A stretch of 64,000 nt of DNA from Leucoraja erinacea (taxonomy: Eukaryota). The notes beneath the pieces were generated by a model. That model saw only the letters and a program-made list of their open reading frames with translations. It did not search any database and had not been told where the DNA came from. Location of the stretch: the NCBI RefSeq assembly GCF_028641065.1, contig NC_073391.1, positions 45,508,001 to 45,572,000 of the forward strand, given 5' to 3'. Positions 2,150 through 62,009 of the stretch are shown here, piece by piece. A program made the position numbers and the translations under genes. Each line of letters begins with the position of its first letter. The stretch's first letter is position 1.

Positions 2150-2300
2150 CTGAATCAATGGAGGCTTCTTTACCCACAATCCTCCCGCGCCTGGAATATG
2201 TTCTATGCCCGCCGTGCTAACGCCGCGCATGCGTCGCCTTGGGGTCTGCAATGCATCCTGGACTAGGCTGGAGGACAAAGTCGGAGATTGGTGCCGGAGG
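2150..2300 (+). promoter_or_regulatory. CpG-rich promoter of degenerate ZNF-2
   Basis: ATGG-N9-TACCCACAATCC at 2158-2182; NRF1-like GCGCATGCG at ~2225; second SBS-like GCAATGCATCCTGG at ~2248. Confidence 0.6.
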
Positions 2301-2303
2301 ACT

Positions 2304-2606
2304 GGAGCCCGGGGTCCCGGCAGCGGCGTCTCCTGCAACCGGGGTATGGAGCCCGGAGTCCCGGTAGCTGCGCTTCATGCAACCGGGGTATGGAGCCCGG
2401 AATCCCGGTAGCTGCGCTTCATGCAACCGGGGTTTGGAGCCCGGGGTCCCGGTAGCTGCGCTTCATGCAACCGGGGTTTGGAGCCCGGAGTCCCGGTAGC
2501 TGCGCTTCATGCAACCGGGGTTTGGAGCCCGGGGTCCCGGTAGCTGCGCTTCATGCAACCGGGGTTTGGAGCCCGGGGTCCCGGCAGCGGCGTCTCCTAC
2601 AACCGG
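2304..2606. repeat. 44-bp GC-rich minisatellite, ~7 units
   Basis: GGAGCCCGG unit starts at 2304, 2348, 2392, 2436, 2480, 2524, 2568. Confidence 0.95.
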
Positions 2607-2729
2607 TTAATCGCTCTGCAGCTCCTGGGTGTAGATTTAACCCATACATTATCCTCAACCGAACTGTCGGGAGTCTCCATCAGGCCGAGGAAGTTCCCCG
2701 ATTAACCTCCCGATCAGAGCTCTCGCCTC

Positions 2730-2905
2730 GAACCCGTCCCCATGTTCTGACTGCGGCAAAGTTCAACGGATCGAGCGATTTAATGAAACACCAACGGGTC
2801 CACTCCGAGGAGAGGCCGTTTACCTGCCCCCAATGCGGGAAGGGCTTCGCTCAGTCCTCCTCCACGTTGAAACACCAGCGTGTTCACGCTGGGCTCAGAG
2901 GTTAA
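2730..2905 (+). pseudogene. Two-finger C2H2 ZNF remnant (ZNF-2) with a frameshift in finger 1
   Basis: TGT TCT GAC TGC GGC AAA G TTC AAC..: CSDCGK is out of frame with [14 protein letters not shown]; second finger CPQC..HQRVH intact; AATAAA 2959-2964. Confidence 0.75.
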
Positions 2906-4994: not shown

Positions 4995-5789
4995 TTAAAC
5001 ATTCCCTTCAGCGTGCACTCGTCTGTGTCTCAGTAGATGGGAGGACCGGGTGAACTCTCTCCCGCATTCGCCGCAGGTGAACGGCCTCTCCCCGGTGTGG
5101 ACCCGCTGGTGCCTCAGCAGGTTGGACGACTGGGTGAAGCCCTTGCCGCACTCGGTGCAGGTGAACGGCCTCTCCCCGGTGTGGATCCGCTGGTGTATGA
5201 TCAGGTCCGACGAGCGGGTGAATCCCTTCCCGCACTCGGAGCAGGTGAACGGCCTCTCCCCGGTGTGGATGTGCTGGTGCGTCAGCAGGTTGGACGACTG
5301 GGTGAAGCCCTTCCCGCACTCGGTGCAGATGAACAGTTTTTCACCAGTGTGGACCCGCTGGTGGGTCAGCAGGTTGGCCGACCGGCTGAAGCCCTTCCCG
5401 CAGTCGGTGCAGATGAAGGGTCCCTCCTCAGTGTGGACCTGCTGGTGCCTCATCAGGCTGGAGGAGCGAGTGAATCCCCTCCCGCACTCAAAACAGGTGA
5501 AGGGTCTCTCCCCGGTGTGGACCAGCTGGTGCCTCATCAGGCTGGAGGAGCGGGTGAAGCCCCTCCCGCATTCGGTGCAGGTGTACGGCCTCTCCCCGGT
5601 GTGGACCTCCTGGTGCCTCATCAGGCTGGATGACCGAGTGAATTCCTGCCCACATTGCGGGCAGATGAAGGGGGTCTCCGCAGAGTGATATCGCTGGTGT
5701 TTCACCAGACCGGACGACTGAGCGAACCCCTTCCCACACACGGTGCAGGTAAACGGCCTCTCCACAGCGTGGACTTGCTTACGTCTCAT
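4995..5789 (-). CDS. C2H2 zinc-finger protein ZNF-3, 9 fingers, no effector domain
   Basis: 264-aa ORF of tandem fingers ending HAEGNV*; candidate acceptor TTTCCCTAG| at ~5986; candidate donor CAG|GTAGG at 7718. Confidence 0.9.
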
Positions 5790-7049
5790 CGAGCCGCTGG
5801 CGTGTTCTCACGGTGTTGGGTTATTGACGCCGGGACAATGTCGCTGTCACAGGAGAAGAAATCAGAGAATCTCCTCCCACACACAGAACAGGTAAAAATC
5901 CCTCCCGACCATGATCCACCGATTTCAATCTGGAGAGGAAATTTATTCCGACGTTCGACAACCAGGACTCATGTATTTCTTTGACCTAGGGAAATACAGT
6001 ATACCCTTGTCATGATGGACTACTCAGGGAGTGAATGGTGTCCGTTACTATCAGCTATAACCAGGTATGGAATTTGCTCCAACCACCTCGCGGTGAATTA
6101 ATTAGTTATTTTAAATAAGTTTTTTTTAACAGCCAAAAATGTATTTTTGTTACATAAAAATACTAAAGGCTGTTTGTTACATTGTTGAATAGAGTCAAGT
6201 GTTGGGATTGCTTGTCAATTCTTTCTTCATTTCAATGTCTTGTCAATTTCAATACTTTGTCAATGTCAATAGCCTCCTCAGTGTAAGTCTGTGTTCTTAA
6301 AGAGACAGTCCGCTATAACTGAAATCCGTTGCAAAGAGGTCTGTAAAGATGAGGGTTTACTGCATATGCCTACTCCTTCTGAACTTTGGATTAATGTTAA
6401 CACTTTGCTTCTCTCCACCTTGATTCATCCAATACATTCCCTCACTGGCGATAACAAGGAACTACAGATGCTAGTTCATACCAAAGAAAGACATAAAGTT
6501 CTGTAGTAACTCAGCGGGTCAGGCAGCATTCCCGGAGAACGTGGATAGGTGACGTTTCAGGTCGGGACCCTTCTTCAGTCACTCTCTCACTTAGTTGGTT
6601 AGTTTTCCTTTCTGGGCTCCGTTCAGGAAGCCATCTCTGCTGCGTAACTGGGTCAAAGCTCTTTCCAGTCGTAGATTCACGTAGTGGTTGTGACTCTAGC
6701 TGCTCTGTGTATGGTTTGTGTTATAAACGGGTTGTGAACATATCAGTGCCATCCTGGTCAACCACAGTTTGCAGTCTTCTCCCAAACATGAAATGGACAA
6801 GTGGCTCCCACTCCTTCATAGATCAATGACATTCAGTTGCTGGAGAATTACCTGACACCGCTGATCTGACAAGATGATAGGTTTGATAATCCCATACATA
6901 AACACGCTGCTTATAATATCTGCAAAATACATTTAAAATACATATATAAAATTGCACAGTAATTTGGAATAAATAATCTCCATCTTGATGGTGGGCTGTG
7001 TGTTAGTAGATTGTACTCACTCTCATCAGGAGCTTCCGTCCAGTTACAG

Positions 7050-7424: not shown

Positions 7425-7875
7425 GTTGGTAATCAATGGCCGCTTTATTACCCACAATCCGCATCGCGCCTGCAACCGCTCTGCGAGTGACAGCTGCACG
7501 CAGACGCGCCTGCGCGGCCCGGGGCCCGCAATGCATCATAGGCCGCACTGGCGAGACAAAGCGGGGGGATCCCCGGGGTCACGGGTGCGGATCGCGGCGG
7601 GCGGACGGGCAGATAAACTGGCATCCACCACTCCGTTTATCCAAACCTCGCACGGACCGGCGCCGGTCGGATGGGTCCGGTGCTGATGAACGCTGCGCGC
7701 CGGCGCTCAGTTCCTACCTGCCGCCGACCTTCCGGAAGTGCCGATGTCAGAGGCGGTTGCTGCGCATGCTTCCGACGTCACTTCCGATATGTGGTCTCGA
7801 AACCTGCGTCCTCCTCCATCTATAGGGCGTATTCCAGGGCGCCGGCATTCTGGGTAACAACCACCGCCATGCATA
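7425..7875 (-). promoter_or_regulatory. CpG island, promoter and non-coding exon 1 of ZNF-3
   Basis: CTTCCGGAAGTG (ETS) ~7729; TGCGCATGC (NRF1-like) 7761; ACGTCACTTCCG (ETS-CRE composite) ~7775; composite ATGG/SBS elements at 7436(+) and 7870(-). Confidence 0.75.
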
Positions 7876-11571: not shown

Positions 11572-12447
11572 TTAAATGTTCCCAGCACTTTGTGTTAACA
11601 TGTGCTCCCTGTTGTGAATCAGCTGGTGCATGAGTCGGTCGGAAGACTGGGAAAACGCCTTCCCGCATTCGGAGCAGGTGAAGGGCTTTTCCCCGGTGTG
11701 GACCCGCTGGTGCCTCCTCAGGCTGGAGGACCACGCAAATCTCTTGCCGCACTTGGCACAGATGAATGGCTTCTCCCCGGTGTGGATGCGCTGGTGGGCC
11801 ACCAGGTGGGATGACTGGTCGAACCCGTTGCCACACTCTGGGCAGATGAACTGCCTGTGGCCGGTGTGGACTCGCAGGTGAGCCGCCAGCCGGGACGACT
11901 GAGAGAACCGCTTTGCACACTCGGGGCAGGCGAACAGCCTCTCGCTGGCGTGGATCAGCCGGTGCGTGATGAGGCTGGAAGAGCGGGTGAACCGCTTCCC
12001 ACACTCGGAGCAGGTGAACGGCCTCTCCCCAGTGTGGACCTGCTGGTGCGTCTGCAAGGACGATGACCGACTGAACCTCCTCCCGCACTCGGAGCAGGTG
12101 AACGGCCTCTCCCCAGTGTGGACCCGCTGGTGCCTCAACAGGCTGGATGACTCAGTGAATCCCTTCCCGCAGTCGGGGCAGGTGAACGGCCTCTCCCCAG
12201 TGTGGACCCTCTGGTGGGTTAGCAAGGACGATGATCGACTGAACCTCTTCCCGCACTCGGAGCAGGTGAACAGTCTGTCCCCCCTGTGGACCCGCTGGTG
12301 CGTCAGCAGAGAGGACGACTGAGTAAACCCCTTCCCGCACTCGGAGCAGGTGAACGGCTTCTCCCCTGTGTGAACCCGCTTGTGTTTTATGAGATCACTT
12401 GATTGCTTGAAGTTCTTTCCACAGTCAGAACATGGGAACGGTTTCAT
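11572..12447 (-). CDS. C2H2 zinc-finger protein ZNF-4, 10 fingers
   Basis: First in-frame ATG (MKPFPCSDC) at 12447; tandem fingers with TGE(K/R)PF linkers. Confidence 0.9.
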   Translation of the reverse strand: MKPFPCSDCGKNFKQSSDLIKHKRVHTGEKPFTCSECGKGFTQSSSLLTHQRVHRGDRLFTCSECGKRFSRSSSLLTHQRVHTGERPFTCPDCGKGFTESSSLLRHQRVHTGERPFTCSECGRRFSRSSSLQTHQQVHTGERPFTCSECGKRFTRSSSLITHRLIHASERLFACPECAKRFSQSSRLAAHLRVHTGHRQFICPECGNGFDQSSHLVAHQRIHTGEKPFICAKCGKRFAWSSSLRRHQRVHTGEKPFTCSECGKAFSQSSDRLMHQLIHNREHMLTQSAGNI

Positions 12448-13740
12448 TGGTGTAAGGGAACAGTGACCGAACAAGAGGATTTAAATCACTCCCAGCCACA
12501 AAAGTAGTAAAGTCCCTGTCTAATGTCTGAAGGATGGTTTCGACCCGAAATATCATCTGTTTCTTTTCTGAGTCTGATGCAGGGTCTCAACCCATTCCTT
12601 TTCTCCAGAGATGCTGCCTGACCCGTTGAGTTACTCCAACATTTTGTGTCTATCTTCGGTGTAAACCAGTATCTGCTGTTCCTTCCTACACGCAATGTAA
12701 TTGGGTCCTGTGATTTCTTCCTTGGAAACATCAACAACCCATTATCTGTTATCAGTAAAATATTTGCTTTGTAGAAAACTTACAAACTCTCGCGTTGGCT
12801 CAGTCAATTATCAAACCCTTTCTCATACATGTAGAACATACGGATGGTTTCGCTCTCTGTGTGTATGCCGAGATGACTTCGATGGCTGTCAAATGTTTTA
12901 AATGTCTTTCCATAATTTGCCTTTGGGACCATCTCCACCTGAGAGTGTTAAACACGCTGCCTTGCTGTCGACTCTCCAGATTGAATTTATTCCTCCATAG
13001 GCAAACATTGTTCCTCGCACGAAATTTGGACGTTGATGCACCAAATGACCCCGTCAGATTTTGATGTGGTATTTGATTTGAAGCAACCTCTCCTTTTGCA
13101 ATTTTCTGTTGAAGAATGAAAAAATATATGCATATCACAGAGTAGAGGAGAGAAATTCAGAATGGACGATAGGTTAGCTGTAATTTCAGGGTAGCTATGA
13201 TTGAGAAGCTTCCGTTTTAAGTCTAATTCATAAACCTGAGCTCAAACGTCTAGCCAATCGATCCAGTTCAATACTGAGTGCCTTCTCCCCATAACCTTTG
13301 ATGCCCTTAGAAACATAGAAAATAGGGGCAGGAGTAGGCCATTCGGCCCTTCGAGCCTGCAACACCATTCAATATGATCACGGCTGATCATCCAACTCAG
13401 TATCCTGTACCTGCCTTCTCTCCATAGCCCCTGATCCCTTTAGCCACAAGGACCACATCTAACTCCATACCAGTCTATCAATCCAGGGCTGCCAACCCTC
13501 ACGCATTGAGTGTGAGAATCAAGCATTTCATGCTCTCACGCTGATCACAGAATTTATCACGCTCAAAAAACAAAATAAATAAAGATAAAAAATAAAGAAA
13601 GTCACAAACAATTCGATTCGCCCAAGGCTTCCAGATCTCCTCCACACTCTCCAATGAGAATAGTTTTCTGTCGGCGGGTTTCCCGTAAAGAACGAGCAAT
13701 TTGATTGGCTTAAGCCCATCGCACGCTATTTAAAATGGCA

Positions 13741-16029: not shown

Positions 16030-16360
16030 TGTTTCAATGGCGACATATTTACCCAGACGGCTCGGCGCGCCGGACAGTGCCCTACCTGTGCAACGGAGAC
16101 CGGAAGTGGTCCACGGGGAGCGCGCGCGTACGGCGGATGTTACCAGAAGCTCGGCGGCGGTTGATGCTGGGACGCCGCTCTGATCAACATGGAAGCCGGC
16201 GGGCGAGACAGACAGGTGTGGGGCGGAGGAAGGCCGTGTGAGTGAGTGAGTGACCGAGCTGCGGCCCCGGCGCCACCGCCTCTTCCCCGGAGTCCGGCCG
16301 CCCAGCCGTCCCAGCATGCCGTGCGGTCCTGCGCATGCGCAACGCAGTAGCCCGTCCCAT
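16030..16360 (-). promoter_or_regulatory. CpG island, likely promoter and exon 1 of ZNF-4
   Basis: Perfect NRF1 site TGCGCATGCGCA 16330-16341; SBS-like TCCCAGCATGCC ~16309; CCGGAAGTG ~16100; minus-strand donor CAG|GTAGG at 16086; composite element at 16037. Confidence 0.7.
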
Positions 16361-20169: not shown

Positions 20170-20690
20170 TGTCACTCCCGCCGTCGCGCTACCCAGACGC
20201 CCCCGCGCCGCAGAAACCCCTCTATCCCGGCGCCGGGGTCAGCAAGGCGCATGCGCCGCCCAGGATCCGGGGCCCGGCTGGCGGCGCGACCCTCGGTAAG
20301 GAGCGGGGAGCCGGAGCCCCCCGGAAGCGGGCGGAACCCCTGGGGAATCCTCGAGAGCGGGCGGGGAGATCCCTGGTAGCGGTCCGGTACCGATTACTGC
20401 CCCCGATCTCCGGCAGCTCCTCGCTGCGGTCTCAACCCGTTGCCCCGGCCCTCGGCCTCCAGCGAACTCCCGCTCTGCCTGGAGACGGACCTTTGCCCCG
20501 CTTTGTCCCGCCCTCGTCGCTCCTGGACCTTCCTTCTCCGCTCCCCGCACCAAAGCTCTTGCTCCAGTATCTTCGGTCCGCACCAAGCGTGCTCGCTTCC
20601 GGTTCTCGGCGCATGCGCCCTCGCTTCCGCTGCACCGACATGGGGCGCTTTCTCTGGCGGATGATTTGTGGTGCAACACAGGCGCCATTC
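20170..20690 (+). promoter_or_regulatory. CpG island, promoter and exon 1 of ZNF-5
   Basis: GCGCATGCGC at ~20248 and ~20609; SBS-like TACCCAGACGC at 20190; donor TCG|GTAAGG at 20295/20296. Confidence 0.7.
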
Positions 20691-20696
20691 GTAAAC

Positions 20697-20830: not shown

Positions 20831-23084
20831 CGCCATTCGTAAACCCTCGTATTACGCGCCTCTTTGGAATGGATTTGCATGATAGCGGACTGTGGCTTTT
20901 AGTTACACCGCGGAGGCCGTTGACATTTACAAGGCATTGAATTCGACAAGGAATTAACATTGACAAGCCATTGAAATTGACACCTTATTGAAATTCACAC
21001 CTTATTGAAATTGACAAGCCATTGCTTCCATGGACACAATTTTCTTAAACAATGTAACAAACAGCGTGTAGTAATTTTAACTTGCAGTAATAAAAATATG
21101 TTTACCTGTTAAAAAGTGCATTCAGCAAGTTAGGCAGGTTAGTGGAAGAAGAAATGGAGTTAACTTTTTAAGGGCAAAGTCCTTTCACCCTGAAGTCCGG
21201 GAGTGGTCATCTCACAGAGGGTTTCCTCACCTCAGCAGCAGGGCAGCAGTTATAGCCGTTCCTCAGCTGCACTCTGTGGTGAGGGAGGTCCCACTGGGCT
21301 CTCAGTGACAGGGCTTCAATGATTTTGACCTGGCGCCCGGGCAGTGAAGTCAATGGGGAAAATAAACTCTCACTTGGTTATAACGGTCAATCTGCAATAA
21401 CGGGCACCATTCCCCCCCCCCCCCCCCCCAGTCCATTATAGCGAGGGTTTACTGTAATGCCTCAAAGCTGTAAATTGGAGGTGTGACTGGCCAGCTGCTG
21501 CTGAGAGTGCACGTAAAATTGACCTGAACTGGATTTCTACCTTGCATTCAGCCAAGTCTCTAGTAAAATGTAGACTGGGAACTGCAGATGCAGATTTACT
21601 TTTTTTTTTTTTAAATAAAGTGCTAGAGTAATTCATCGGGTCAGGCAGCATCTATGCAGAACATGTAGAGACGATGTTTTGGGTTGGGATCCTTCTTCAA
21701 AAAGAAATAAAAGGTCTTTTGTAAATTTCTTTAAAGGTTAACAGAAGAGGAAGATGCCATGAATCAGAACATTTGTCGCCCTGAAAGGAGATCGTTCCGC
21801 CCAGAATAGAGGCCTCCTGGCAATGAATGCTTCAAGTATGGTTGATATGTAAAGATCTTTTTTGTTTCTATTCACTCCTTCAGCTCGTGAGTTTCTCCCA
21901 CTATCCTCTGATCCCTTCCGCCTACATCCTTTCCTCTGGCTTCACTTTTCACCCCTGGCCTTTGTACATCCATCTGTCCACCAATGCCCACCCCCCTCCC
22001 CCCCACACTTACCTGAATCCACCTATCACTCGCCTCACCTCTCTTTCCAGCTTTCTTCTCTTTTCTCTTCACACCCCCCCCCCCGACTCCAACCAGTCTG
22101 AAGAAGGGTCCTGACCTGAATCATCACCTATCCATGTCATCCAGAGCTCCTGCCTGACCCGAGTTACTCCAACATTTCAGTCTTTTTTTGTAAACCAGCA
22201 CCTGCAGTTCCATGCATCGATGTTGTCTTGATTGGATCAGTCTGAGGAAGAATCCCAATCGAAAAGTTGGCATATCCATCTCCCTCCACAGACGCTGCCT
22301 GCCCCATTGAGTTCCTCCAGCACTTTGCCATTTTCTCTGCTTAGAGATTCCAGTATCTGCAGTTCCTCGTGTCCCCTTCCCGGGTCGACGGCAGTCGCCC
22401 TGATTTAGCCGAAAGAGAGGAGAGGAAAGTGGAGACAATTTTGGATCGGGGTTCGGAAGCACCCGGGGATTTAACCGGGCAGAAAGGGCCTTTGGAGGGT
22501 CACCAGCGGGGCACCGGCTGTGGAAGGAGGCAGAGACGCAGACCCCGTCGGAGATTACAACCACACGTAAGGTCTCACACACTGGGCTGTGGTCACCACG
22601 GGTTAGACCCTGTGGTCAGAGGCCCGACACACTACAAATAATCTACAAACCGGATGCTCGTTTCCTCCCACAGTCACAGCGTGAAAACAGGCCCTTCGGC
22701 CTTCCGAGTCCATGCCGACCATCAATAACTCGTTCACACTAGTTCTGTTATCCTACTTTCTCATCCACCACCAATTTACAGAGGCCAACTCAACCTACAA
22801 ATCAGCACGTCTTTGGGATGTGGGAGGGAATGGGAATAGCGTCATAGCTGCCTAACAGCTTGGGTTTTGTCTGTGTCAAACTCAACATTGACGTGAAATG
22901 TTGATCATGTTTCTCTCTCCACAGAGGCTGCCTTACCTGGTGATTTGGGTTTGGGGACAGCTCCATCCAAGACCGCAGGACATTACAGAGTTCTAGATGT
23001 AGCCCAGAGCATCACATAAAGCGACACCCCTTCCATTGACATTGTCTACACTTCACACTGCCTTGGCATTTGACAGAGTGGGCG

Positions 23085-23678
23085 ATGGAGGATTCGGGCA
23101 GCTTGGACCAAACGATGGCTCGGGACGGGTCCGGGACGTTGGATCGGCAGGAAGAGGAGCATTGCCAGGAAGAGGATGGGTGGTTCCCATGCGGGGAAGG
23201 TGACCGGGGAGTCACGCAGGCGGACGGACTGGCCGGGCAACCGCGCAGCCCAGGCGGGGAGAAGCCGTGGAAATGCGGGGACTGCGGGAAGGGCTTCAGC
23301 TACCCGTCGCAGCTGGAGATGCACCGGCGCAGCCACACGGGCGAGAGGCCGTTCACCTGCTCCATCTGCGGCAAGGGCTTCACCCAGCTGAGCCACCTGC
23401 CCCGGCACTACCAGGTCCACTTTGTGGAGAGACTGTTCAACTGCTCCGTGTGCGGCAAGGGCTTCACCCAGTCCTCCAGCCTCCTGACCCACCAGCGGCT
23501 CCACACCGGCGAGAGGCCCTTCGTCTGCTCCACCTGCGGAAAGCGCTTCACCCGCTCCTCCCACCTGCTGGCTCACCAGCGGGTCCACACCGGCGAGCGC
23601 CCCTTCTCCTGCCCGCTCTGCGGCAAGAGCTTCCGCAGCTCCTCCAACCTCAGCAAGCACCAGCGGGTCCACAAGTGA
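23085..23678 (+). CDS. C2H2 zinc-finger protein ZNF-5, 5 fingers plus acidic N-terminus and one degenerate finger
   Basis: Acceptor TTTGACAG| at 23076; ATG in GCGATGG context at 23085; AATAAA 23862-23867. Confidence 0.9.
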
Positions 23679-25599: not shown

Positions 25600-25860
25600 C
25601 GATCTGATGGTCGGTAACGGGCTATAGGGGGGCGAGCGGGGGGGAAGGGCCGGGACTGTCCGGAGGGATTGTTTATCCCCGCGGCCCCAGAGCTGCCTCC
25701 TACCTGGGACCTTCCCTCACCGCGCTCACCGCGGGACACCACTTCCGGTCTCTCCACTTCCGACTTCTGCAGCTGAGATAGAGCCCATTCCGCGCCGCAA
25801 TGCATTCTGGTTACTTCTACACGCCATGGTGCTTGGCGTGAATAAGGTCGTTCATCACCC
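25600..25860 (-). promoter_or_regulatory. Orphan CpG promoter and exon 1, paralogous to the ZNF-9 promoter
   Basis: Reverse complement aligns with 37330-37570; two CACTTCCG ETS sites; TAACCAGAATGCATTGCG SBS; donor CAG|GTAGG at ~25704. Confidence 0.7.
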
Positions 25861-27179: not shown

Positions 27180-28223
27180 CTACCCATGGTTGGGAGAGGC
27201 AAATGGTTTCTCCACAGCGTGAATTCGCTGGTGGGTCTTCAGGTGAGAAGATTGAGTGAATTTCCTCCCACACTCAGAGCAGGTGAACGGCCTCTCCCCG
27301 GTGTGAACTCGCTGGTGGGTCTTCAGGGTGCTTGTTTGAGCGAATCCTTTCCCACAATCGGGACAAACAAATGGTTTCTCCGCAGTGTGAACTCGCTGGT
27401 GGGTTACCAGGTGGCCAGATTGGGTGAATCCCATCCCGCACTCGGAGCAGGTGAACGGCCTCTCGCCCGTGTGATTTCTCTCATGCACCACTAATGCAGA
27501 GGATAGAGCGAATCCCTGCCCACACTCGGAGCAGGTGAACGGCCTCTCCCCCGTGTGGTTTCTCTCATGCACCACTAACGCAAAGGATTGAGTGAAACCC
27601 TGCCCACACTCGGAGCAGATGAACGGCCTCTCCCGGGTGTGAATTCGTTGGTGGGTCTTCAGGCTGCTTGCTACAGTGAATCCCTTCCCACAATCGGGAC
27701 AGTCAAATGGTTTCTCCGCAATGTGAACTCGCTGGTGGGACACCAGTTGGGAAGATTGGACAAATCCCTTCCCGCAATCGGAGCAGGTGAACGGCCTCTC
27801 TCCCGTGTGAATTCTCTGGTGTCTCAGTAAGTCAGATGAACAAGTAAATCCCTTCCCACATTCAGAGCAGTTGAACGGCCTCTCTCCAGTGTGAATTCGC
27901 TGGTGTATCTGTAATTTAGATGATTCAACGAATCTCATTCCACACTTACAGCAGGCAAACGGCTTCTCCCCTGTGTGAATTCTCTGGTGTAGCAGCAACT
28001 TAGATGATCCAATGAATCCCTTCCCACATTCAGAGCAAGTGAACGGCCTCTCCCCTGTGTGAATACGCTGGTGCCTCTTCAGTTGGTACGATTGAGTGAA
28101 TCCCTTCCCACAATCGGGACAGGTAAACGGTTTCTCCACAGTGTGAACTGGCTGTCGGGTCAACAGGGGGGAAGATTGGTTTAATCCCTGCCCACACTCA
28201 GAGCTGGCGAGTAATTTCTCCAT
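27180..28223 (-). CDS. C2H2 zinc-finger protein ZNF-6, 11 fingers
   Basis: ATG (MEKLL) at 28223; intact finger array; ends FASPNHG*. Confidence 0.88.
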   Translation of the reverse strand: MEKLLASSECGQGLNQSSPLLTRQPVHTVEKPFTCPDCGKGFTQSYQLKRHQRIHTGERPFTCSECGKGFIGSSKLLLHQRIHTGEKPFACCKCGMRFVESSKLQIHQRIHTGERPFNCSECGKGFTCSSDLLRHQRIHTGERPFTCSDCGKGFVQSSQLVSHQRVHIAEKPFDCPDCGKGFTVASSLKTHQRIHTRERPFICSECGQGFTQSFALVVHERNHTGERPFTCSECGQGFALSSALVVHERNHTGERPFTCSECGMGFTQSGHLVTHQRVHTAEKPFVCPDCGKGFAQTSTLKTHQRVHTGERPFTCSECGRKFTQSSHLKTHQRIHAVEKPFASPNHG

Positions 28224-36739: not shown

Positions 36740-37600
36740 CACCGGTCAATCCGTGCATTCGATGCGCTCCCGCCGCCGGGGACCGCACCGATTCTCCCCG
36801 CAGCCGGGGGCCGCTCCTCAGGCCGGGGCCTCGGTGCTGACTGATCCCGCGCCCGGATTCCCGCTCCTACCCGCCGCCGGTCCTCCGGAGTCGTTTGCCC
36901 ACTGACCGCATGCGCGCCTTGGGCTCTCCGCGCCTGCGCGCTTGGTATCGGCTGCAACATAGGGTGATTTCTGGGGCGCGGAGATTTCTGGGTAAAAAGG
37001 GCGCCATGGACATGATCTGAAATCACCGGCTCAACGTTCCTCGATAAAGTGCAAATAAACAGATAATGGGCTATTAATGGTCAGTGTTTTGTCCGAGCTG
37101 AGTTTAATAGCATGATGGCTGTGGGGAAGTGGCTATTCCTGAACCTGGTCGTTGCAGTCTTCAGGCAGTTCAAAAGTTCCACACTAACTGAACATCAAAT
37201 TAGAAAATGTTTAAAGTGTTTCGGCCCGAAACGTTTCCTATTTCCTTCGCTCCATAGATGCTGCTGCACCCGCTGAGTTTCTCCAGCTTTTTTGTTTACC
37301 ATCAAATTAGAAAAATCCCATGTGATCAACGACGTTATTCACGCCAAGCATCATGGCGTCCATTAGTGACCAGAATGCGCTGCGGCGTGGAACACGGTCT
37401 ATCTCTGCTACAGGAGCCGGAAGGCCAGGGGCAGAGAAAGGAAGTGCTGTCCCGGGCATGCGCGTTGGGGTGGGAGCGCCGCGGATGAAGGTCTGTCCTC
37501 AGCCCGAGCTCGTTTCCGGCCCCAGGTAGGAGCGCAGCGCGGGGCCGCGGGGATTACCGGCTCCCCGGGCCAGGCGTGGACGGGCAGGCCTCCGGGCTGG
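36740..37600. promoter_or_regulatory. Head-to-head CpG promoters of ZNF-8 (-) and ZNF-9 (+)
   Basis: Composite elements at 37007(-) and 37353(+); GCATGCGCG; plus-strand donor CAG|GTAGG at ~37525. Confidence 0.7.
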
Positions 37601-39032: not shown

Positions 39033-39338
39033 CAGTGCCCTCCATAATGTTTGGGACAAAGACACATCATTTATGTATTTGCCTCTGTATTCCACAATTT
39101 GAGATTTGTAATAGAAAAAAAATCACATGTGGTTAACAATGCACATTGTCAGATTTTAATAAAGGCCATTTTAATATATTTTGGTTTCACCATGTAGAAA
39201 TTACAGCAATGTTTATACATCGTCCCCCCCATTTCAGGGCACCATAACATTTGGGACACATGGCTTCACAGATGTGTGCACTTTAACCACATGTGATTTG
39301 ATTTCTATTACAAATCTTAAATTTGTAATAGAAAAAAA
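39033..39338. mobile_element. Tc1 left-TIR fragment just upstream of the ZNF-9 acceptor
   Basis: TA|CAGTGCCCTCCATAATGTTTGGGACAAAGAC. Confidence 0.85.
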
Positions 39339-39396
39339 CAGGCCCTTCTCGCACCGCTTTGTGTTTTACAGACATTTCTCAGACAGGGTGTCTTTG

Positions 39397-40269
39397 ATGG
39401 AGGGCAACTCGAACCAGACGCCAGGCGATGATGATACTCCAGTGCCCCTCGATTCGCCCGGGCACCGTCGGCCTTTGAAGGTGGGAGGCGAGAGCTCGGT
39501 CGGCGGCAGCGGGGAGGAGCGGTTCAGGTGCTCGGAGTGCGGCCGGGGATTCAGCCGAGCGTCCGGCCTGTCCAGGCACCAGCGCTGCCACAGGGGGGAG
39601 AGGCCCTGGAAATGCGGGCACTGTGGGAAAGGCTTCAACTACGCGTCGCAGCTGGAGATCCACCGGCTGCGCCACACCAGGGAGCAGCCGTGGAAGTGCG
39701 GCGACTGCGGCAAGGGCTTCAGCTACCCGTCCCAGCTGGAGATTCACCGGCGCAGCCACACCGGCGAGAGGCCGTTCACCTGCTCCCAGTGCGGCATGGG
39801 CTTCTCCCACTCCTCCAGCCTCCTGACCCACCAGCGGGTCCACACGGCGGACAGGCCCTTCACCTGCTCCGAGTGCGGCAAGGGCTTCACCCGCTCCTGC
39901 CACCTCCTGCGGCACCGCCTGGTCCACGCCGGGGAGAGACTGTACGCCTGCTCCATGTGCGGCAAGGCCTTCAGCCAGTCCTCCTGCCTCCTCCGGCACC
40001 AGCGGGTCCACACTGGCGAGAAGCCCTTCACCTGCTTCCTGTGCGGCAAGGCCTTCAGCCAGACCTTCAACCTCCACGCCCACCAGCGGGTCCACACTGG
40101 CGAGCGGCCCTACACCTGCTTCACCTGCGGCAAAGGTTTCACCCAGTCGTCCAACCTGCTCACCCACCAGCGTGTCCACACCAGGGAACGGCCCTACACC
40201 TGCTCCGACTGTGGCAAGGGCTTCAGCGGCTTGTCTAGCCTCCGGAAACACCGGCAAATCCACGAATGA
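39397..40269 (+). CDS. C2H2 zinc-finger protein ZNF-9, 9 fingers, paralog of ZNF-5 and ZNF-10
   Basis: Acceptor GTGTTTTACAG| at 39371; ATG (MEGNSN) at 39397; [17 protein letters not shown] finger shared with ZNF-5. Confidence 0.9.
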
Positions 40270-44841: not shown

Positions 44842-44952
44842 TGATTCCAGTCCAGTTACAGGTGATTTACCATCAGCAGAATGAGCCCAACCTGGGGCGT
44901 GAAAGTGGTCCATTCGTGGATATAATTACAGTTCTAATGGAGTAACAACGAG

Positions 44953-45838
44953 TCACTTGTGAATCCGCTGGTGAGTGCGCAGGTTGGAGGAATGGCTGAA
45001 GGCTCTGCCGCACTCCGGGCACACGTAGGGCCTCTCCCCAGTGTGGACCCGCCGGTGGGTAAGCAAAGAGGAGGAGCGGGTGAACCTCTTCCCGCACTCG
45101 GTGCAGGAGTAGGGCCGCTCCCCGGTGTGGACCTTCAGGTGCTTCCTCAGGTTGGTCGACTGCCCGAACTCCTTGCCGCACTCGAGGCAGGTGAAGGGCC
45201 TCTCTCCCGAGTGGACCCTCTGGTGCTTCCTCAGGTTGGTCGACTGGCTGAAGTCCTTGCCGCACTCGGGGCACGTGAAGGGCTTCTCCCCGGTGTGGAC
45301 CCGCTGGTGCGTCAGGAGGCTGGACGAGCGGCTGAACCTCTTGCCGCACTCGGCGCAGGCGAAGGGTCTCTCGCCGGTGTGGCTGCGCTGGTGCATGTGC
45401 AGCGAGGAGGAGCGGGTGAAACCCTTCCCGCACACGGGGCAGTTGACGGGCTTGTCCCTGCTGTGGGCCCCGCTGGTGCTCCTGCAGCTCGGACGACAGC
45501 GCGAACCCCTCGCCGCACGTTGGGCAGGGGAAGAGCCTCTCCCTGGCATGGCCGCGCCGGTGGATCCCCAACTGAGTCAGGTAGTTGAAGCCCTTCCCGC
45601 AGTCCGCGCACTTCCACAGCTTCTCGCCGCTGTGGCTGCGCTGGTGCCTCAGCAGCTGCGACGCCCGACCGAAGCCCTGCCCGCACTCCGAACACGGGAA
45701 CCACTTCCCCCCGTCGTCCGCCGGGCCCTTGGCCTCCGCGTCCGAAAGCCGGCCCGGCTGAGATCCCGAAGGGAGCAGCGACTCCGGCAGGTCTTCGCCT
45801 GAGCTTCGGTTCGAGTCTCCCGTTTGTGAATCCTCCAT
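44953..45838 (-). pseudogene. C2H2 ZNF-10, 9 fingers, interrupted by a +1 G at 45468-45471 (pseudogene or sequence error)
   Basis: CAG CGG GGCC CAC: removing one G restores HQRAH and joins the two ORFs (886 = 885+1 nt); acceptor at 45842. Confidence 0.8.
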
Positions 45839-46384
45839 CACCTTGGGGGGGAAAGACAGCAGTCATCAGTCACACCCTTCCATCGACAGCATCCACACCT
45901 CACGCTGTCTCGGCAAGGCCACCAGCACAAACAAAGTTACCAGTCTCACCCCAGTCTCACCTCTTCTCCCCTCCCCCATCGGACAAAAGGTACAGAAGTT
46001 TGAAAACGCAAAGATGGACGCAAAATGCTGGAGTAACACAACGGATCAGGCAGCATATCTGGAGAAAAGAGATGGGTTATGTTACAGGGTGAGACCCTTC
46101 AGACTTCTGAGCAGTAGCTCTTCCGCTGCGCCACATTTCTACCTTTCGGATCAAGGATCCTCTTCAAGCAAGACGATTCGCGGGTTAGATAAACAAATGT
46201 AAAAATATTACCGACTATTTAAATGAATGGATGATTGAATGGATAAACGAACTGATCAATGAAAGGTGAAGGTAGACAAAAGTGCTGGAGAAACTCAGCG
46301 GGTAAGGCAGGATCTATGGAGCGAAGGCAACGTTTCGGGCCGAAACCCTTCTTCAGACTGATGTGAATGAAAAGGTGAAATTAA

Positions 46385-46860
46385 CTCACTTTTTCCATGC
46401 CGAGCTTGGCTCGATCTTCTGCCGTTGCTTCCATCAACTTGAATATCGGGTGCTGGGCGGAGTCAGACCATGGGGCATATTTACCAGGCACGGTCTGTAA
46501 TCTGAGCCCCGCCGCTGGTCCCGGTGGATCAATGGCCGCCGTCTTACCCAGAAGCACCCGCGTGCCAGAAACCGCTGTATCTGCGGCAGCGGCAGCGGCG
46601 GAGACGCGCCCCTCCCCCACTCGCCGCGCTCTTCCACTCTGCTCCTCCTCCGGCTTCACCCTCCCGTCCACCGCACCGGGATCCCGGTCGGCTCTCAAGG
46701 CTCCTGGATCGGTAGCTTGTGTCCCGAGCAGATGGAAGGCGACGCCGGCAACGCAGCCTCCCCCCCCCCCCGTCGCCGCTGTCCTCCTGTGCAACCGGCG
46801 AACATCCGGATCCTGTGGCGGCGCTGCGCATGCGCGGCATTCAGCAGCCCGCCCTCGCCT
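46385..46860 (-). promoter_or_regulatory. CpG island, promoter and exon 1 of ZNF-10
   Basis: TGCGCATGCGCG at ~46825; composite element at 46532; donor AAA|GTGAGT at 46390/46389. Confidence 0.7.
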
Positions 46861-53119: not shown

Positions 53120-53460
53120 CATCGTTCCAGCGCAGCCGTCGCTCGCTGTTCGGTCAGGTAGGCACAGCCCTCTCTCAGCTGATCAATGGCCGCCGCGAGT
53201 ACCCAGAACACCCCGCGCTCCAGCAAGCGGTCCGCCGGCCCCAGTGTCGGCAGATACGCATGCGCTCTGCCGGACGCGCGGTGCACCCTGGGTGAGCCTG
53301 GTGGGACAGGACAAAGCGGGAGATTCCCCTCCCCGGGTCACCGGAGTGGAGCCGGACGTTCCGGGGCTGAACGGGGCTGGCCCGGGGCTGAACGGGGCTG
53401 GCCCAGGGCGGGCCCAGCGGTGCATCTGGAAATCTCATCATCGCTGCATCCGCGGCCAGG
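53120..53460 (+). promoter_or_regulatory. CpG promoter and exon 1 of ZNF-11
   Basis: Composite element at 53186; CGCATGCGC at ~53257; donor TGG|GTGAGC at 53291/53292. Confidence 0.7.
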
Positions 53461-53713
53461 GTTTTGAAATAGGAAACGTGACCCGTTCCTTCTCTCCAGA
53501 GATACTGCCCACTGAATTGCTTCAGCTTTTTGTGTCTATCTTCTATTTAAACCATCACCTGCAGTTCCTTCCTGCACTGCTTCTCCTTGGGTCCAGGCCC
53601 CGTGTCCAGATTTAATCTGAGCTCCGGACGGGGTGGCACATTCATCTGCTGTGGGACCTGGTAGGAAGTCATTGATTGACCCTCCTGTCTAACAAACCTG
53701 AGTGTCCGCGGCG

Positions 53714-54556
53714 ATGGAAGCTTCCCAGTGCCCTGACTATGGGAAGGCCATTCGCCAGCCCAGTGACCCGTCAACACACCACACCGGCGAGAGGCTGTTA
53801 ACCTGCTCCGAGTGCGGGAAAGGATTCAGCTGGTTATCCTCCTTTCTGAGACACCAGCGGGTCCACACTGGCAACAGGCCCTTCACCTGCTCCCAATGCG
53901 GGAAGGGCTTCGCCGAATCCTCTCACCTACTGAGGCACCAGCCGGTTCACACGGGCGAGAGGCCGTTCCCCTGCTCCGAGTGCGGGAGGCGATTCAACTG
54001 GTCGTCCTCGCTGCTGACCCACCGGCGGGTCCACACCGGGGAGAGGCCCTTCACCTGCCTGGAGTGCGGGAAGGGGTTCACCGATTCGTCCGCCTTGAGA
54101 AGCCACCAGCGGCTTCACACCGGGGAGAGGCCATTCGTATGCGCGACGTGCGGGAAGAAATTCAGCCTGTCGTCCAGCCTGCTGTCCCACCAGAGGGTCC
54201 ACACCGGGGAGAGGCCGTTCACCTGCCCAGAGTGCGGGAAGGGATTTACCCGACCATCAGATCTGGTGACTCACCAGCGCGTTCACACCGGGGAGAGGCC
54301 GTTCACCTGCTCCGATTGCGGGAAGGGCTTCACTCAGTCGTCCAGCCTGGTGACCCACCAACGAGTTCACACAGGGGAGAGGCCGTTCATCTGTTCAGAA
54401 TGTGGGAAGGGATTCATTCGCGCACCTGATCTGGTCAAACACCAGCGAGTTCACACCGGGGAGAGACCGTTCACCTGCACTGAGTGCGGGAAGGGGTTCA
54501 CTCAGTCATTATATCTGCGGAGACACCAACGTGTGCACACCAAAGGAAATGTTTAA
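53714..54556 (+). CDS. C2H2 zinc-finger protein ZNF-11, 9 fingers plus a degenerate first finger
   Basis: Acceptor CCAG| at 53596; ATG in GCGATGG context at 53714; ends HTKGNV* like ZNF-3. Confidence 0.9.
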
Positions 54557-57295: not shown

Positions 57296-57819
57296 TCTGA
57301 AAAGCATTCACCTCTAAATTACCCCGAATGCGAAAGTGGCATAACATGGAACTAGAGGGTAGACAAAAGAGCTGGGGAAACTCAGCGGGTGAGTATCTAT
57401 GGGGCGAAGGAAATAGGCAACGTCTGAAGAAGGGTTTCAGCTCGAAACGTTGCCTATTTCCTTCGCTCCATAGATGCTGCCGCACCCGCTGAGTTTCTCC
57501 AGCAATTTTATCTACCTCCTAAGCAAATATACTATCTTTGGTCCGAAGAAGGGTGCCGACTCGAAACGACATCTGAAGAAGGGTCTCGACCCGAAACGTC
57601 ACCCATCCCTTCTCTCCAGAGATGTGCCTGTCCCGCTGAGTTACTCCAGCTTTTTGTGTCTATCCATGTTCTTCAGAAATGCTGCCTGATCCGCTCATTT
57701 ACTCCAGCACCTTGTGTCTTTTTTATTGGAAAACGGCACCTGTAGTGTCTGCTGTTCTACAGTCGTTCCATTTGGGAGTATTTTTGAGGGACGTGAGACG
57801 TAAAGCCAACAGCTAAATT

Positions 57820-58170
57820 CCTATCAATGGAGGACACCATTGACCAGAAGCCTCTGCGGCTAAGTAAGTGCTCTATCAACACTAAAGGAAGAGTGCAGCG
57901 TATGTGCACAGCGGAAGGGACGTGACCTGGGCAGCGACGGTGGTGTGGAGGTAGGAGCTGGGGACTGGGGTGTGGGTTCAATTGGTGCGGGCGGGCGGGC
58001 GGGCGAGCTGGAGGCGCAGCCATCGTCCATGGGAGGAGATCTGCAGAAACACAGCGGGCAGCCATGCTGGCTCAGACCTGACCATTATCCCCCGTGCGAG
58101 TTCCTTGCGTTTTCCACAGGCCCGGTTCAAGAAACGCGTCGCTCGCTGGGACGCGGGGAGTCATAGTCAC
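57820..58170 (+). promoter_or_regulatory. Putative ZNF-type promoter and exon 1 (second copy ~60210-60560); coding exon not in window
   Basis: ATGG-N10-TGACCAGAAGCCTCTGCG at 57827; CGGAAG; donor GAG|GTAGG at ~57951. Confidence 0.55.
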
Positions 58171-59624
58171 ACAGCGTGGAAACAGGCAAAGTCAGCCCAT
58201 TTGTCCCCGCCGCTCATATCCTTCCAAATCCTTCTGTCTCACGACTTCGGTTTAAATCTCTAGTCTTTGTTTTATCCATACGCCTATCAAAAGAAAACCC
58301 TCCCCCTTGTCCATCCTCCGGGCTGTGTCATGCCTCATCTCCCCTACACTCTTCCCCCCCCCCGCACCCCCCCCCCCCCCCCCCCCCCCCGGTCTGCAGA
58401 AGGGACCCGAACCGAAACTTGACATGCATATTCTCCATCTCTAGATGATGCCTGGCCCGATGAGTTATTGCAGCATTTTGAGTCCCTTTAAACATTTCCT
58501 ACCCATGTGCCACTCCGAATGTCTTTTAAATGTTGTAAAAGGTACTTGCTTCAAGTTCAAGTGAGTTTATTGTCATGTGTCCCAGATAGGACAATGAAAT
58601 TCTTGCTTTGCTTCAGCATACAGAACATAGTAGGCATTGACTACAAAACACATGAATAAACAAACTGTTAAAGTGCAAATAACAGATAATGGGTTATTAA
58701 TGTTCAGAGTTTTGTCTGAACATTAATAACCCATTATCTGTTATTCAGAGCCAGGTTTAATAGCCTGATGGCTGTGGGGAAGTAGCTATTCCTGTCAAGT
58801 CAAGTCAAGTTTATTTGTCACATACACTTACGAGATGTGCAGTGAAATGAAAGTGGCATCACCTGAACCTTGTCATTGCAGTCCTGTACCTCCTACCTGA
58901 AGGTAGCAGGGAGGTTAGTGTGTGGCCAGGATGGTGTGGGTCATTGATGATACTGCCAGCCTTTTTGAGGCAGCGACTTCGATAAATCCCCTCGATGGAA
59001 GGAAGGTCAGAGCCGGTGATGGACTGGGCAGTGGACTACTACTTCCTCTGCACGAAAGGACACAAAGTCTCAGCAGGTCAGGCAACATCTCTGGAGAACA
59101 TTTCAGGTCGAGGCCCTTCTAAGGACTGATCGTCCGGAGAGGGGGGCGGGGCTGAGAAAGGATCTTGACCCAAAGTAATTTATCCACATTCTTCGGAGAT
59201 GCTGCCTGACGTGCTGAATTATGCCAGCACTTTGTGTCCATTTGAATATTAACCCGCTGAGTTACTCCAGCTTTTTGTGCCTGACAAGCATCTGTAGTTC
59301 TTTCTTTCCACCTCTTCTGCCAGATTGTTCCAGATACCCACCACTGTCTGAGTGAAAATATTGCCCCTCAGGATCCTATTAAATCTTTTCCCTCTCACCT
59401 TAATCCTATGTCCTGTGGTTTTGATGTCTGTCCTCTGGGTAAATTCACCTTATCTATCCCCCTCATACACCTCTATAAGATCACCCCTCATCCTCCTGCG
59501 CTGAAAGAAATAAAGTTCAACACAGCCTAACCTCCATTGCTCAGGCCCTCAAGTCCAGGCAACAGCCTCGTAAATCTTCAATACACTCTTGTACAGGAAG
59601 GAACTGCATAAATACACTCTTTCC

Positions 59625-60157
59625 ATAGAAACATAGAAAATAGGTGCAGGAATAGGACATTCGGCCCTTCGAGCCTGCACCGCCATTCAATATGATCATG
59701 GCTGTTCATCCAACTCAGTATCCTGTACCTGCCTTCTCTCCATACCCCCTGATCCCATTAGCCACAAGGGCCACATCTAACTCCCTCTTAAATATAGCCA
59801 ATGAACTGACCTCAACTACCTTCTGTGACAGAGAATTCCAGAGATTCACCACTCTCTGTGTGAAAAATGTTTTCCTCATCTCAGTCCTAAAAGATTTCCC
59901 CCTTATCCTTAAACTGTGACCCCTTGTTCTGGACTTGCCCAACATCGAGAACAATCTTCCTGCATCCAGCCTGTCCAATCCCTTAAGAACTTTGTAAGTT
60001 TCTATAAGATCCCCCCTCAATCTTCTAAATTCTAGCGAGTACAAACCGAGTCTATCCAATCTTTCTTCATATGAAAATCCTGACATCCCAGGAATCAGTC
60101 TGGTGAACCTTCTCTGCACTCCCTCTATGGCAAGAATGTCTTTCCTCAGATTAGGAT
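59625..60157 (-). mobile_element. CR1 LINE 3' end (copy 1)
   Basis: ORF 59715-60119 is the CR1 ORF2 C-terminus. Confidence 0.9.
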
Positions 60158-62009
60158 CACCATTTGGGAGTATTTTTGAGGGACGTGAGACGTAAAGCCA
60201 ACAGCTAAATTCCTATCAATGGAGGACACCATTGACCAGAAGCCTCTGCGGCTAAGTAAGTGCTCTATCAACACTAAAGGAAGAGTGCAGCGTATGTGCA
60301 CAGCGGAAGGGACGTGACCTGGGCAGCGACGGTGGTGTGGAGGTAGGAGCTGGGGACTGGGTGTGGGTTCAATTGGTGCGGGCGGGCGGCGGGCGGGGCG
60401 AGCTGGAGGCGCAGCCATCGTCCATGGGAGGAGATCTGCAGAAACACAGCGGGCAGCCAGGCTGGCTCAGACCTGACCATTATCCCCCGGGTGAGTTCCT
60501 TGCGTTTTCCACAGGCCCGGTTCAAGAAACGCGTCGCTCGCTGGGACGCGGGGAGTCATAGTCACACAGCGTGGAAACAGGCAAAGTCAGCCCATTTGTC
60601 CCCGCCGCTCATATCCTTCCAAATCCTTCTGTCTCACGACTTCGGTTTAAATCTCTAGTCTTTGTTTTATCCATACGCCTATCAAAAGAAAACCCTCCCC
60701 CTTGTCCATCCACCGGGCTGTGTCATGCCTCATCTCCCTACACTCTTCCCTTCCCCGCACCCCCCCCCCCCCCCCGTGTCTGCAGAAGGGACCCGAACCG
60801 AAACTTGACATGCATATTCTCCATCTCTAGATGATGCCTGGCCCGATGAGTTATTGCAGCATTTTGAGTCCCTTTAAACATTTCCTACCCATGTGCCACT
60901 CCGAATGTCTTTTAAATGTTGTAAAAGGTACTTGCTTCAAGTTCAAGTGAGTTTATTGTCATGTGTCCCAGATAGGACAATGAAATTCTTGCTTTGCTTC
61001 AGCATACAGAACATAGTAGGCATTGACTACAAAACACATGAATAAACAAACTGTTAAAGTGCAAATAACAGATAATGGGTTATTAATGTTCAGAGTTTTG
61101 TCTGAACATTAATAACCCATTATCTGTTATTCAGAGCCAGGTTTAATAGCCTGATGGCTGTGGGGAAGTAGCTATTCCTGTCAAGTCAAGTCAAGTTTAT
61201 TTGTCACATACACTTACGAGATGTGCAGTGAAATGAAAGTGGCATCACCTGAACCTTGTCATTGCAGTCCTGTACCTCCTACCTGAAGGTAGCAGGGAGG
61301 TGAGTGTGTGGCCAGGATGGTGTGGGTCTTTGATGATACTGCCAGCCTTTTTGAGGCAGCGACTTCGATAAATCCCCTCGATGGAAGGAAGGTCAGAGCC
61401 GGTGATGGACTGGGCAGTGGACTACTACTTCCTCTGCACGAAAGGACACAAAGTCTCAGCAGGTCAGGCAACATCTCTGGAGAACATTTCAGGTCGAGGC
61501 CCTTCTAAGGACTGATCGTCCGGAGAGGGGGGCGGGGCTGAGAAAGGATCTTGACCCAAAGTAATTTATCCACATTCTTCGGAGATGCTGCCTGACGTGC
61601 TGAATTATGCCAGCACTTTGTGTCCATTTGAATATTAACCCGCTGAGTTACTCCAGCTTTTTGTGCCTGACAAGCATCTGTAGTTCTTTCTTTCCACCTC
61701 TTCTGCCAGATTGTTCCAGATACCCACCACTGTCTGAGTGAAAATATTGCCCCTCAGGATCCTATTAAATCTTTTCCCTCTCACCTTAATCCTATGTCCT
61801 GTGGTTTTGATGTCTGTCCTCTGGGTAAATTCACCTTATCTATCCCCCTCATACACCTCTATAAGATCACCCCTCATCCTCCTGCGCTGAAAGAAATAAA
61901 GTTCAACACTGCCTAACCTCCATTGCTCAGGCCCTCAAGTCCAGGCAACAGCCTCGTAAATCTTCAATACACTCTTGTACAGGAAGGAACTGCATAAATA
62001 CACTCTTTC

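Follow-up and report, generated by a model that had tools for sequence, protein, structure and literature searches.

How a newly duplicated zinc-finger gene acquires a working promoter is a simple question with few answers: zinc-finger clusters expand fast, and the expression of new copies outside mammals and zebrafish is little studied. The question is raised directly by a 64-kb stretch of the Leucoraja erinacea genome (contig NC_073391.1, positions 45,508,001 to 45,572,000; hereafter the window), which is a cluster of C2H2 finger exons comprising a gene end at 1-323, a one-finger remnant and nine arrays of 5-13 fingers, surrounded by long interspersed element (LINE)-like pieces, short repeats and a long terminal repeat (LTR) element. 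A preliminary description of this DNA listed 14 copies of the pattern ATGG-N9/10-T(A/G)(C/A)CCA(G/C)A and proposed that a dedicated two-factor module, with YY1 on the first box and ZNF143 on the second, co-regulates the family. Analysing this one window of one genome, we find that the pattern is part of a larger cassette which, as read from its alignment, is composed of box A (ATGG), an 18-bp Staf/ZNF143-binding site (SBS) of the SBS1 type, a further box C and, in most cases, an NRF1 or ETS word placed 51-58 bp further downstream. We consider it likely that this is the upstream activating cassette of an ancestral zinc-finger promoter, centred on ZNF143, copied by gene duplication and kept by purifying selection.

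A recurrent element at the edges of CpG islands

The element is real and non-random. The pattern recovers all 14 sites exactly as first listed, strands included, while 200 block-wise dinucleotide shuffles (500-bp blocks) give a mean of 0.15 matches and a maximum of 2. Among the 44 second-box words in the window, ATGG stands at a spacer of 9 in seven cases and of 10 in seven more; every other spacer from 0 to 30 occurs at most once. The pattern was picked after the sequence had been seen, and the stronger tests are therefore those on positions outside it. Offsets are given throughout from the T of TACCCA, and copies are named by the position of this T (2171, 7449, 7856, 16050, 20190 and so on). 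Searching the window with a profile of the cassette returned the 14 copies and a new one, 20190 on the forward strand, at E 2e-8 or better (a set of which 11 had served to train the profile), followed by a copy on the reverse strand, 20674, at E 0.089; no other match fell below E 2.9. The 20190 copy has the SBS and box C without ATGG, the 20674 copy is degenerate, and a third addition, 29795 on the reverse strand, carries a 33-nt deletion. Counts of 16 copies below refer to the original 14 with 20190 and 20674, and counts of 15 to those that have ATGG. An exact-pattern scan of a bacterial and archaeal genome collection gave no matches, a result uninformative about vertebrates.

All copies had been placed in promoter-like segments, which is correct for 13 of the 14, found in CpG-island DNA of promoter-like character, and not for the copy with ATGG at 34562 (T at 34548). 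Conversely, 13 of the 18 non-coding CpG islands contain a copy; the five that do not are two within the LTR element, two small islands and one over a 176-aa open reading frame (ORF) without a Pfam match. All 15 island copies (of 16) face inwards, 12 of them lying no more than 70 bp from the island edge at the 200-bp resolution of the island windows, and 10 of 16 copies have a donor-like splice site after them, at +84..+159. Two islands have facing copies at both ends (7449/7856 and 20190/20674), an arrangement that would give overlapping head-to-head transcription units 400-500 bp apart.

Repeats approach the cassette to -19, -24, -30 and -40, and by self-BLAST no non-paralog repeat match overlaps any copy. 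The idea of an interspersed repeat or transposon end was rejected on the same evidence, the upstream flanks having an identity of 0.25 and the matches over cassettes being segmental duplicates only. Nor is box A a start codon, since it stands at the outer edge of the island and both the NRF1/ETS words and the first donor lie downstream of it. Some neighbouring features deserve mention in their own right. A small CpG island at 42150-42250 has an NRF1 word and no cassette, and is possibly a different type of promoter; it includes a near-palindromic word at ~42207-42221 that we take to be RFX X-box-like. A tandem array with an 88-bp period (44-bp sub-unit) occupies 2303-2606, inside the island after the 2171 copy, and an imperfect inverted repeat of ~600 bp (19294-19896, 71% identity) lies just upstream of the 20190 promoter.

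Architecture of the cassette

The second box was described as resembling the Staf/ZNF143 site, and this holds at positions that the pattern had left free: SBS positions 9-18 match the consensus in 74 of 100 cases against 41 +/- 4.6 in local island background, with none of 20000 draws reaching 74. The consensus string comprised the 12 letters of the preliminary description and six further letters. According to PMC3082894, the 18-bp SBS is defined by CCCR at positions 3-6 and C at position 12; of the 16 copies, 15 have C12 and 10 have CCCR. Mismatches to the SBS number 1-5 in 15 of 16 copies and 8 in the degenerate 20674 copy. The mammalian accessory motif ACTAYRNNNCCCR has no match in the window on either strand, and because this ACTACA motif is absent the site is assigned to the SBS1 type. 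A core of SBS1 type, for ZNF143/Staf or its paralog ZNF76, is thus supported at the level of sequence. The related copies 2171, 7449 and 53200 have in addition an inverted SBS-like word at +76..+78 (4, 4 and 2 mismatches, respectively), of which only that of 53200 is strong taken alone. The gap of 58-60 bp to these words may be compared with the THAP11-ZNF143 motif pairs, on opposite strands and ~61 bp apart, that TF-COMB reports in human cells (PMC9358416), the likeness being one of resemblance only.

Conservation was measured on 10 lineage representatives, namely nine from the 14 copies plus 20190, leaving aside recent duplicates and 20674. The aligned copies are conserved from about -17 to +36, or ~53-55 bases. 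Mean pairwise identity is 0.25 upstream of the cassette, 0.61 in the three bases preceding ATGG, 0.32 in the spacer between box A and the SBS, 0.89 in SBS 1-8 (positions selected by the pattern), 0.50 in SBS 9-18, 0.44 in the 4-base linker that follows, 0.59 in box C (0.51 without a one-base shift of the 7856 copy) and 0.30 in the 14 bases just past it. The boxes are therefore kept above their flanks in the paralog alignment (0.59 for box C against 0.25-0.32 outside). The two boxes of the first account do stand 9-10 nt apart amid diverged spacer and flanks; the conserved span is larger than that account allowed, and includes a third box.

Box C, roughly RGAA-N3-GCYCTAT at +22..+35, played no part in the earlier selection. 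Its identity exceeds that of all 20000 random-offset draws (maximum 0.39) and also the highest value reached by any fixed window of 14 bases outside -30..+36 (0.37). In leave-one-out scoring, nine lineages score 3.8-13.8, while 26 of 29 control second-box words score 0.7 or less; the remaining three, at 8.3, represent a single stretch that recurs in the related genes G5-G7. Further in, 8 of 11 lineages have an NRF1-like or ETS word beginning within +48..+61, for which the background rate is 0.108 per window (nominal P 2e-6). Several candidate identities for boxes A and C were rejected. Compared by eye with known motifs, box C as a GATA, TEAD, CTCF or second tandem SBS site fits some copies only in each case. 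Box A as an NF-Y site fails because, in all 16 copies, the 25 bp preceding the SBS contain no CCAAT on the element strand, and a SOX/HMG site (consensus WWCAAWG) fits only 7 of 15, though we retain it as a lead.

Paralogous promoters of a KRAB-less zinc-finger family

Recent duplication accounts for three groups of copies (by ATGG position 25827/34562/37353, 28769/32800/37007 and 57827/60219), reducing the 14 to nine lineages. The third group reflects a 2.4-kb tandem duplication at 57768-62548 that carries two cassette copies; at 98.9% identity it may have arisen very recently or be an artefact of assembly. The suggestion that about ten copies are independent of recent duplication is thus borne out approximately, at nine lineages, though several of these share exon-1 and donor sequence and so do not have independent origins. 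Outside the boxes, 7856 is linked to the 28756 family across exon 1 and the donor (E 4e-6), 16050 is linked to 25813 (E 2e-4), one word is common to 2171, 7449, 53200 and 20674, and five lineages have a GTAGGA-type donor; for 46545 the comparison gave no link outside the boxes. From these sequence relationships the copies are best described as paralogous promoters of about nine to eleven lineages, and because they are paralogous their shared spacing is inherited. Sequence, position, orientation, conservation pattern and paralogy are all direct observations here.

The genes of the cluster encode finger arrays without a detectable KRAB domain. KRAB-A is absent among the best 25 Pfam families for each of nine finger ORFs, and a three-sequence KRAB-A profile run on the six-frame translation gives a best E of 1.5, while the same profile finds 15 of 20 control N-termini. 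The proposal that NRF1 and ETS words adjoin the site at promoters of KRAB-less C2H2 genes is upheld. In a protein search with one array, the best-scoring relative was from the sawshark Pristiophorus japonicus, a score dominated by finger repeats, and the highest listed identities (60-61%) were to Hemitrygon akajei, a stingray; both point weakly to a cartilaginous fish. A same-strand copy lies 0.3-2.9 kb upstream of 8 of the 10 finger exons, and the nearest to G3 is 8.2 kb away. Coordinates of all copies and finger exons are collected in Table 1.

Other segments of the cluster were noted alongside. An NRF1-bearing, promoter-like segment on the reverse strand faces G3 at 16300-16400; it has no recognisable cassette but retains an SBS in inverted orientation (2 mismatches) and a faint word like box C. 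A second such segment, at 46800-46890 on the reverse strand, faces G9, likewise has no recognisable cassette and by eye resembles the 20190 promoter. G9 itself switches frame near 45500, through a frameshift or sequencing error. Downstream of the 7856 copy, 7770-7790 on the reverse strand holds overlapping ETS and cAMP response element (CRE) words, after which come another ETS word and one for NRF1. The LTR retroelement occupies 48605-52158, with 215-bp LTRs that are 99.5% identical, a gag-like ORF and protease and integrase domains, Pfam reporting no reverse transcriptase family in it; a solo LTR copy, ~97% identical, lies at 34755-34972.

Table 1. Cassette copies and C2H2 finger exons in the window; offsets are relative to the T of TACCCA.
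Feature	Positions	Strand	Details
Cassette copy 2171	2154..2207	+	NRF1 +54; weak inverted SBS +76; 559 bp before G1
Cassette copy 7449	7432..7485	+	NRF1 +57; weak inverted SBS +78; no close same-strand finger exon
Cassette copy 7856	7820..7873	-	box C one base closer; ETS/CRE/NRF1 words +70..+87; donor +139; 2.0 kb before G2
Cassette copy 16050	16033..16086	+	ETS +51; downstream sequence related to 25813 family
New copy 20190	20173..20226	+	SBS1 and box C intact, no box A; NRF1 +57; donor +106; 2.9 kb before G4
New degenerate copy 20674	20638..20691	-	ATGG at spacer 10; SBS with 8 mismatches; box C; ETS +45, NRF1 +56; candidate promoter for G3
Cassette copy 25813	25777..25830	-	ACCA variant; perfect SBS 3' half; ETS +51, +66; donor-like +84..+110
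Cassette copy 28756	28720..28773	-	NRF1-like +55, ETS +74, NRF1 +95; donor +143; 434 bp before G5
Decayed 25813 paralog 29795	29749..29800	-	box A retained; SBS and most of box C lost to a 33-nt deletion; changes in both ETS words
Cassette copy, recent duplicate of 28756	32751..32804	-	508 bp before G6
Cassette copy 34548	34512..34565	-	orphan in truncated duplicate of 25813 promoter; no downstream island or donor; only 5 CpG in +50..+300
Cassette copy, recent duplicate of 28756	36958..37011	-	340 bp before G7; back to back with 37367
Cassette copy 37367 (25813 family)	37350..37403	+	ETS +51, NRF1 +89; donor +159; 1.8 kb before G8
Cassette copy 46545	46528..46581	+	points away from G9; no NRF1/ETS word at +51..+58
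Cassette copy 53200	53183..53236	+	weakest box C; NRF1 +58; inverted SBS +77 (2 mismatches); donor +92; 502 bp before G10
Cassette copy 57841	57824..57877	+	ACCA variant; degenerate NRF1 +57, ETS +71; donor +110; finger exon outside window
Cassette copy	60216..60269	+	within 98.9% identical 2.4-kb tandem duplicate of 57841 region
G1, one-finger remnant	~2730-2900	+	
G2, 9 fingers	4995..5807	-	
G3, 10 fingers	11572..12480	-	
G4, 5 fingers	23040..23678	+	
G5, 11 fingers	27180..28322	-	
G6, 13 fingers	30924..32279	-	
G7, 5 fingers	36004..36654	-	
G8, 9 fingers	39175..40269	+	
G9, 8 pattern-matching fingers in two frames	44873..45862	-	no same-strand cassette upstream
G10, 9 fingers	53702..54556	+	

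Proposed mechanism and its alternatives

We propose the following as the most likely mechanism, on the basis of mammalian studies of ZNF143, its binding site and island accessibility; protein binding, start-site position, activation and co-regulation are inferences here. The promoter of one ancestral zinc-finger gene would have supplied a cassette that every duplication of a gene copied and that purifying selection then preserved. ZNF143 or ZNF76 would occupy the SBS ~90-160 bp before the first splice donor, and NRF1 or GABP/ETS, 51-58 bp further in, would act jointly with it to open the island edge. Initiation would thereby be driven into the CpG island before the first donor, providing a housekeeping-type promoter for each new gene. 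ZNF143 has been reported to stimulate initiation from sites upstream in promoters (10.1101/2024.05.13.594008), and the SBS by itself to drive transcription bidirectionally (PMC3082894). Furthermore, ZNF143 is described as conserved in metazoans and active in zebrafish (PMC6977252), and NRF1, ETS and THAP11/ZNF143 motifs are listed among the predicted drivers of island accessibility (10.64898/2026.05.04.722487). Boxes A and C would be two more sequence-specific contacts at constrained distances. The base preferences of ZNF143 from chromatin immunoprecipitation are given as stopping outside a 29-mer (10.1101/2024.05.13.594008); both boxes lie partly outside this span, and they probably bind other proteins.

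Several points weigh against this proposal. ACCA replaces CCCR in 6 of 16 copies, two of them otherwise perfect SBSs. The box C and NRF1/ETS windows were set after the alignment had been viewed. For half of the copies (8 of 16) there is no same-strand finger exon within 2.9 kb that has the copy as its nearest promoter, and G9 is without a same-strand copy. As for the distances between boxes, a star-tree indel simulation, using the rate of 17 indels per 148 substitutions seen between recent duplicates, gives P = 0.001, 0.013 and 0.003 for the constant length of the three spacers at a pairwise divergence of 2 (Jukes-Cantor identity 0.30, near the value of the spacer), the third figure resting on six NRF1-bearing lineages only. 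At a divergence of 1 the values are marginal (P = 0.045, 0.12 and 0.06), and the indel rate comes from 17 events. Since the star tree overstates independence and the third figure draws on few lineages, we conclude from this model only that constraint on spacing is likely.

The alternative that survives best, although we consider it improbable, is that only the ZNF143 site, with its NRF1/ETS neighbours, is functional, and that boxes A and C and their spacing are residual similarity left by descent. The promoters are indeed paralogs, the 20190 copy does without box A, and family-specific motifs are known to arise from near-identical human ZNF promoters (PMC8415372). Moreover, fixed spacings published for ZNF143 have turned out to derive from repeats: the 37-bp ZNF143-CTCF spacing is reported to be an artefact of unbound B2 short interspersed elements (SINE B2; PMC11687419), and the 36-bp NF-Y-ZNF143 spacing to fall often within LTR12/ERV9 repeats (PMC4889920). 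However, a neutral residue should decay evenly, whereas here the spacer (0.32) and the sequence past box C (0.30) are at composition level and box C is at 0.59. Inheritance alone fits this uneven decay poorly, and from the alignment the boxes and their spacing look selectively kept.

A dedicated two-factor module of YY1 and ZNF143, with YY1 on box A, appears slightly less probable still. The CCAT core of the YY1 consensus CGCCATNTT is shared, ATGG being present in 15 of 16 copies at a spacer of 9 or 10 (it was a selection criterion of the earlier pattern), and 9 of these 15 read CGCCAT on the reverse strand. In addition, YY1, ZNF143, THAP11 and GABP co-occupy HCFC1-bound CpG promoters (Michaud 2013, as cited in PMC7154149 and PMC4889920). 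Beyond the core the match fails: T8 of the consensus occurs in 0 of 15 boxes and T9 in 3 of 15, with both in none. PMC1904287 reports that both matter, T9 being required and a T8->A change cutting binding dramatically, an effect described there for A rather than for G or C. Positions 8 and 9 are instead conserved as other bases (within the three bases at identity 0.61), and a factor other than YY1 is therefore suggested. Downstream of the start site is, moreover, where YY1 motifs are described as commonly lying (10.1101/2024.05.13.594008); box A, in contrast, forms the outer end of the cassette, upstream of the activator site. Judged on these differences, box A is probably not a YY1 site. The two-factor module also leaves out box C, which is better kept than box A: at 20190, where repeated sequence reaches up to -19, box A is absent and the SBS, box C, NRF1 word and donor are retained. 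For this reason a module of two factors is an incomplete account of the cassette, and its fixed spacing comes from the descent of whole promoters.

It is more doubtful again that the whole cassette is one long site for a multi-finger protein encoded in the cluster, with family autoregulation and a partly incidental likeness to the ZNF143 site. Conservation over ~53 bp at near-fixed spacing, the 5-13 fingers of the neighbouring proteins and the broken CCCR in 6 of 16 copies would suit such a protein. The central 18 bp nevertheless track the SBS pattern position by position, the NRF1/ETS neighbours suit an ordinary CpG-island promoter, and a stable long target would be less expected where finger arrays differ among paralogs. 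Least probable of all, and very unlikely, is a small nuclear RNA (snRNA)-type promoter like the compact one of H1 RNA, with the SBS beside a box C resembling the proximal sequence element (PSE). A single SBS1 is reported for each of the 56 ZNF143 events at genes of snRNA type (PMC3627581), but splice donors follow the copies, the window's three octamer words (1651, 20873 and 26730) keep no constant offset, and Rfam at gathering threshold and ARAGORN (tRNA) found no match in the window, on which ground a non-coding RNA gene or SINE-type internal promoter was rejected as well. Box C of the 28756 family differs from a 16-nt PSE consensus at 3 positions, and that of the remaining 9 of 10 lineages at 5-8.

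Relation to known systems and significance

That the SBS is common to zinc-finger promoters is already known in mammals, where ZNF143 occupies the promoters of 114 KRAB-ZNF genes on human chromosome 19 (PMC3627581). Mammalian KRAB-ZNF clusters (human chromosome 19, mouse chromosome 7) are likewise tandem C2H2 families with promoters enriched for ZNF143 sites; the skate genes, in contrast, show no KRAB domain and use SBS1 with different flanks. The 18-bp site is that of Staf/ZNF143 SBS1 (the SPH motif), which similarly lies upstream in CpG-island promoters with NRF1 and GABP/ETS. Here it is set in a cassette with two extra conserved boxes at near-fixed distances, reads ACCA in 6 of 16 copies, and belongs to a 53-bp conserved span that exceeds the reported 29-mer footprint of ZNF143. 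The SBS2/M4 class (ACTACAN plus SBS; THAP11-HCFC1) likewise pairs the SBS with a conserved accessory box, set upstream at a fixed distance and presumed to be for a second factor, but in the skate the place of ACTACA is unconserved spacer and box A is further out. In a human cisDIVERSITY set of 37 ZNF promoters an architecture is likewise shared by duplication, the promoters there being near-identical (PMC8415372) whereas the flanks here are at background, leaving just the boxes. Zebrafish znf genes have TATA/sharp and broad promoter classes (10.1101/2021.08.09.455629, 10.1101/2022.11.29.518450); on chromosome 4 the architecture is similarly family-wide, and is defined, as reported there, by the TATA box and start-site shape.

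In the mostly open-access article text searched, we found no published description of the flanking boxes, the island-edge placement or the occurrence in a KRAB-less chondrichthyan family; the human sites listed with PMC3627581 may bear on whether flanks of this kind occur there. Literature on fixed YY1-ZNF143 spacing, chondrichthyan zinc-finger clusters, ZNF143 at zebrafish znf genes and paired SBSs likewise yielded no paper describing the cassette. Tentatively, and with odds that we place well short of even, boxes A and C may constitute a third composite class of ZNF143 site, with partners beyond THAP11 and YY1, that licenses a whole, rapidly evolving KRAB-less family in cartilaginous fishes and marks the island border against neighbouring repeats, ZNF143 control being then ancestral to jawed vertebrates. 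Should boxes A and C prove inert, the cassette would reduce to a ZNF143/NRF1/ETS CpG-island promoter of the ordinary kind, common to paralogs.

A cassette that travels with each duplicate would offer a simple mechanism for the expression of new genes, and its profile a means of searching for the promoters of this family in sharks and rays, with boxes A and C as concrete baits for pull-down. The link between ZNF143 and zinc-finger clusters would thereby become testable across jawed vertebrates. If boxes A and C do constitute such a third class, then taken with the mammalian KRAB-ZNF data this would mean that the control of zinc-finger clusters by ZNF143 predates the KRAB-ZNF clusters themselves.

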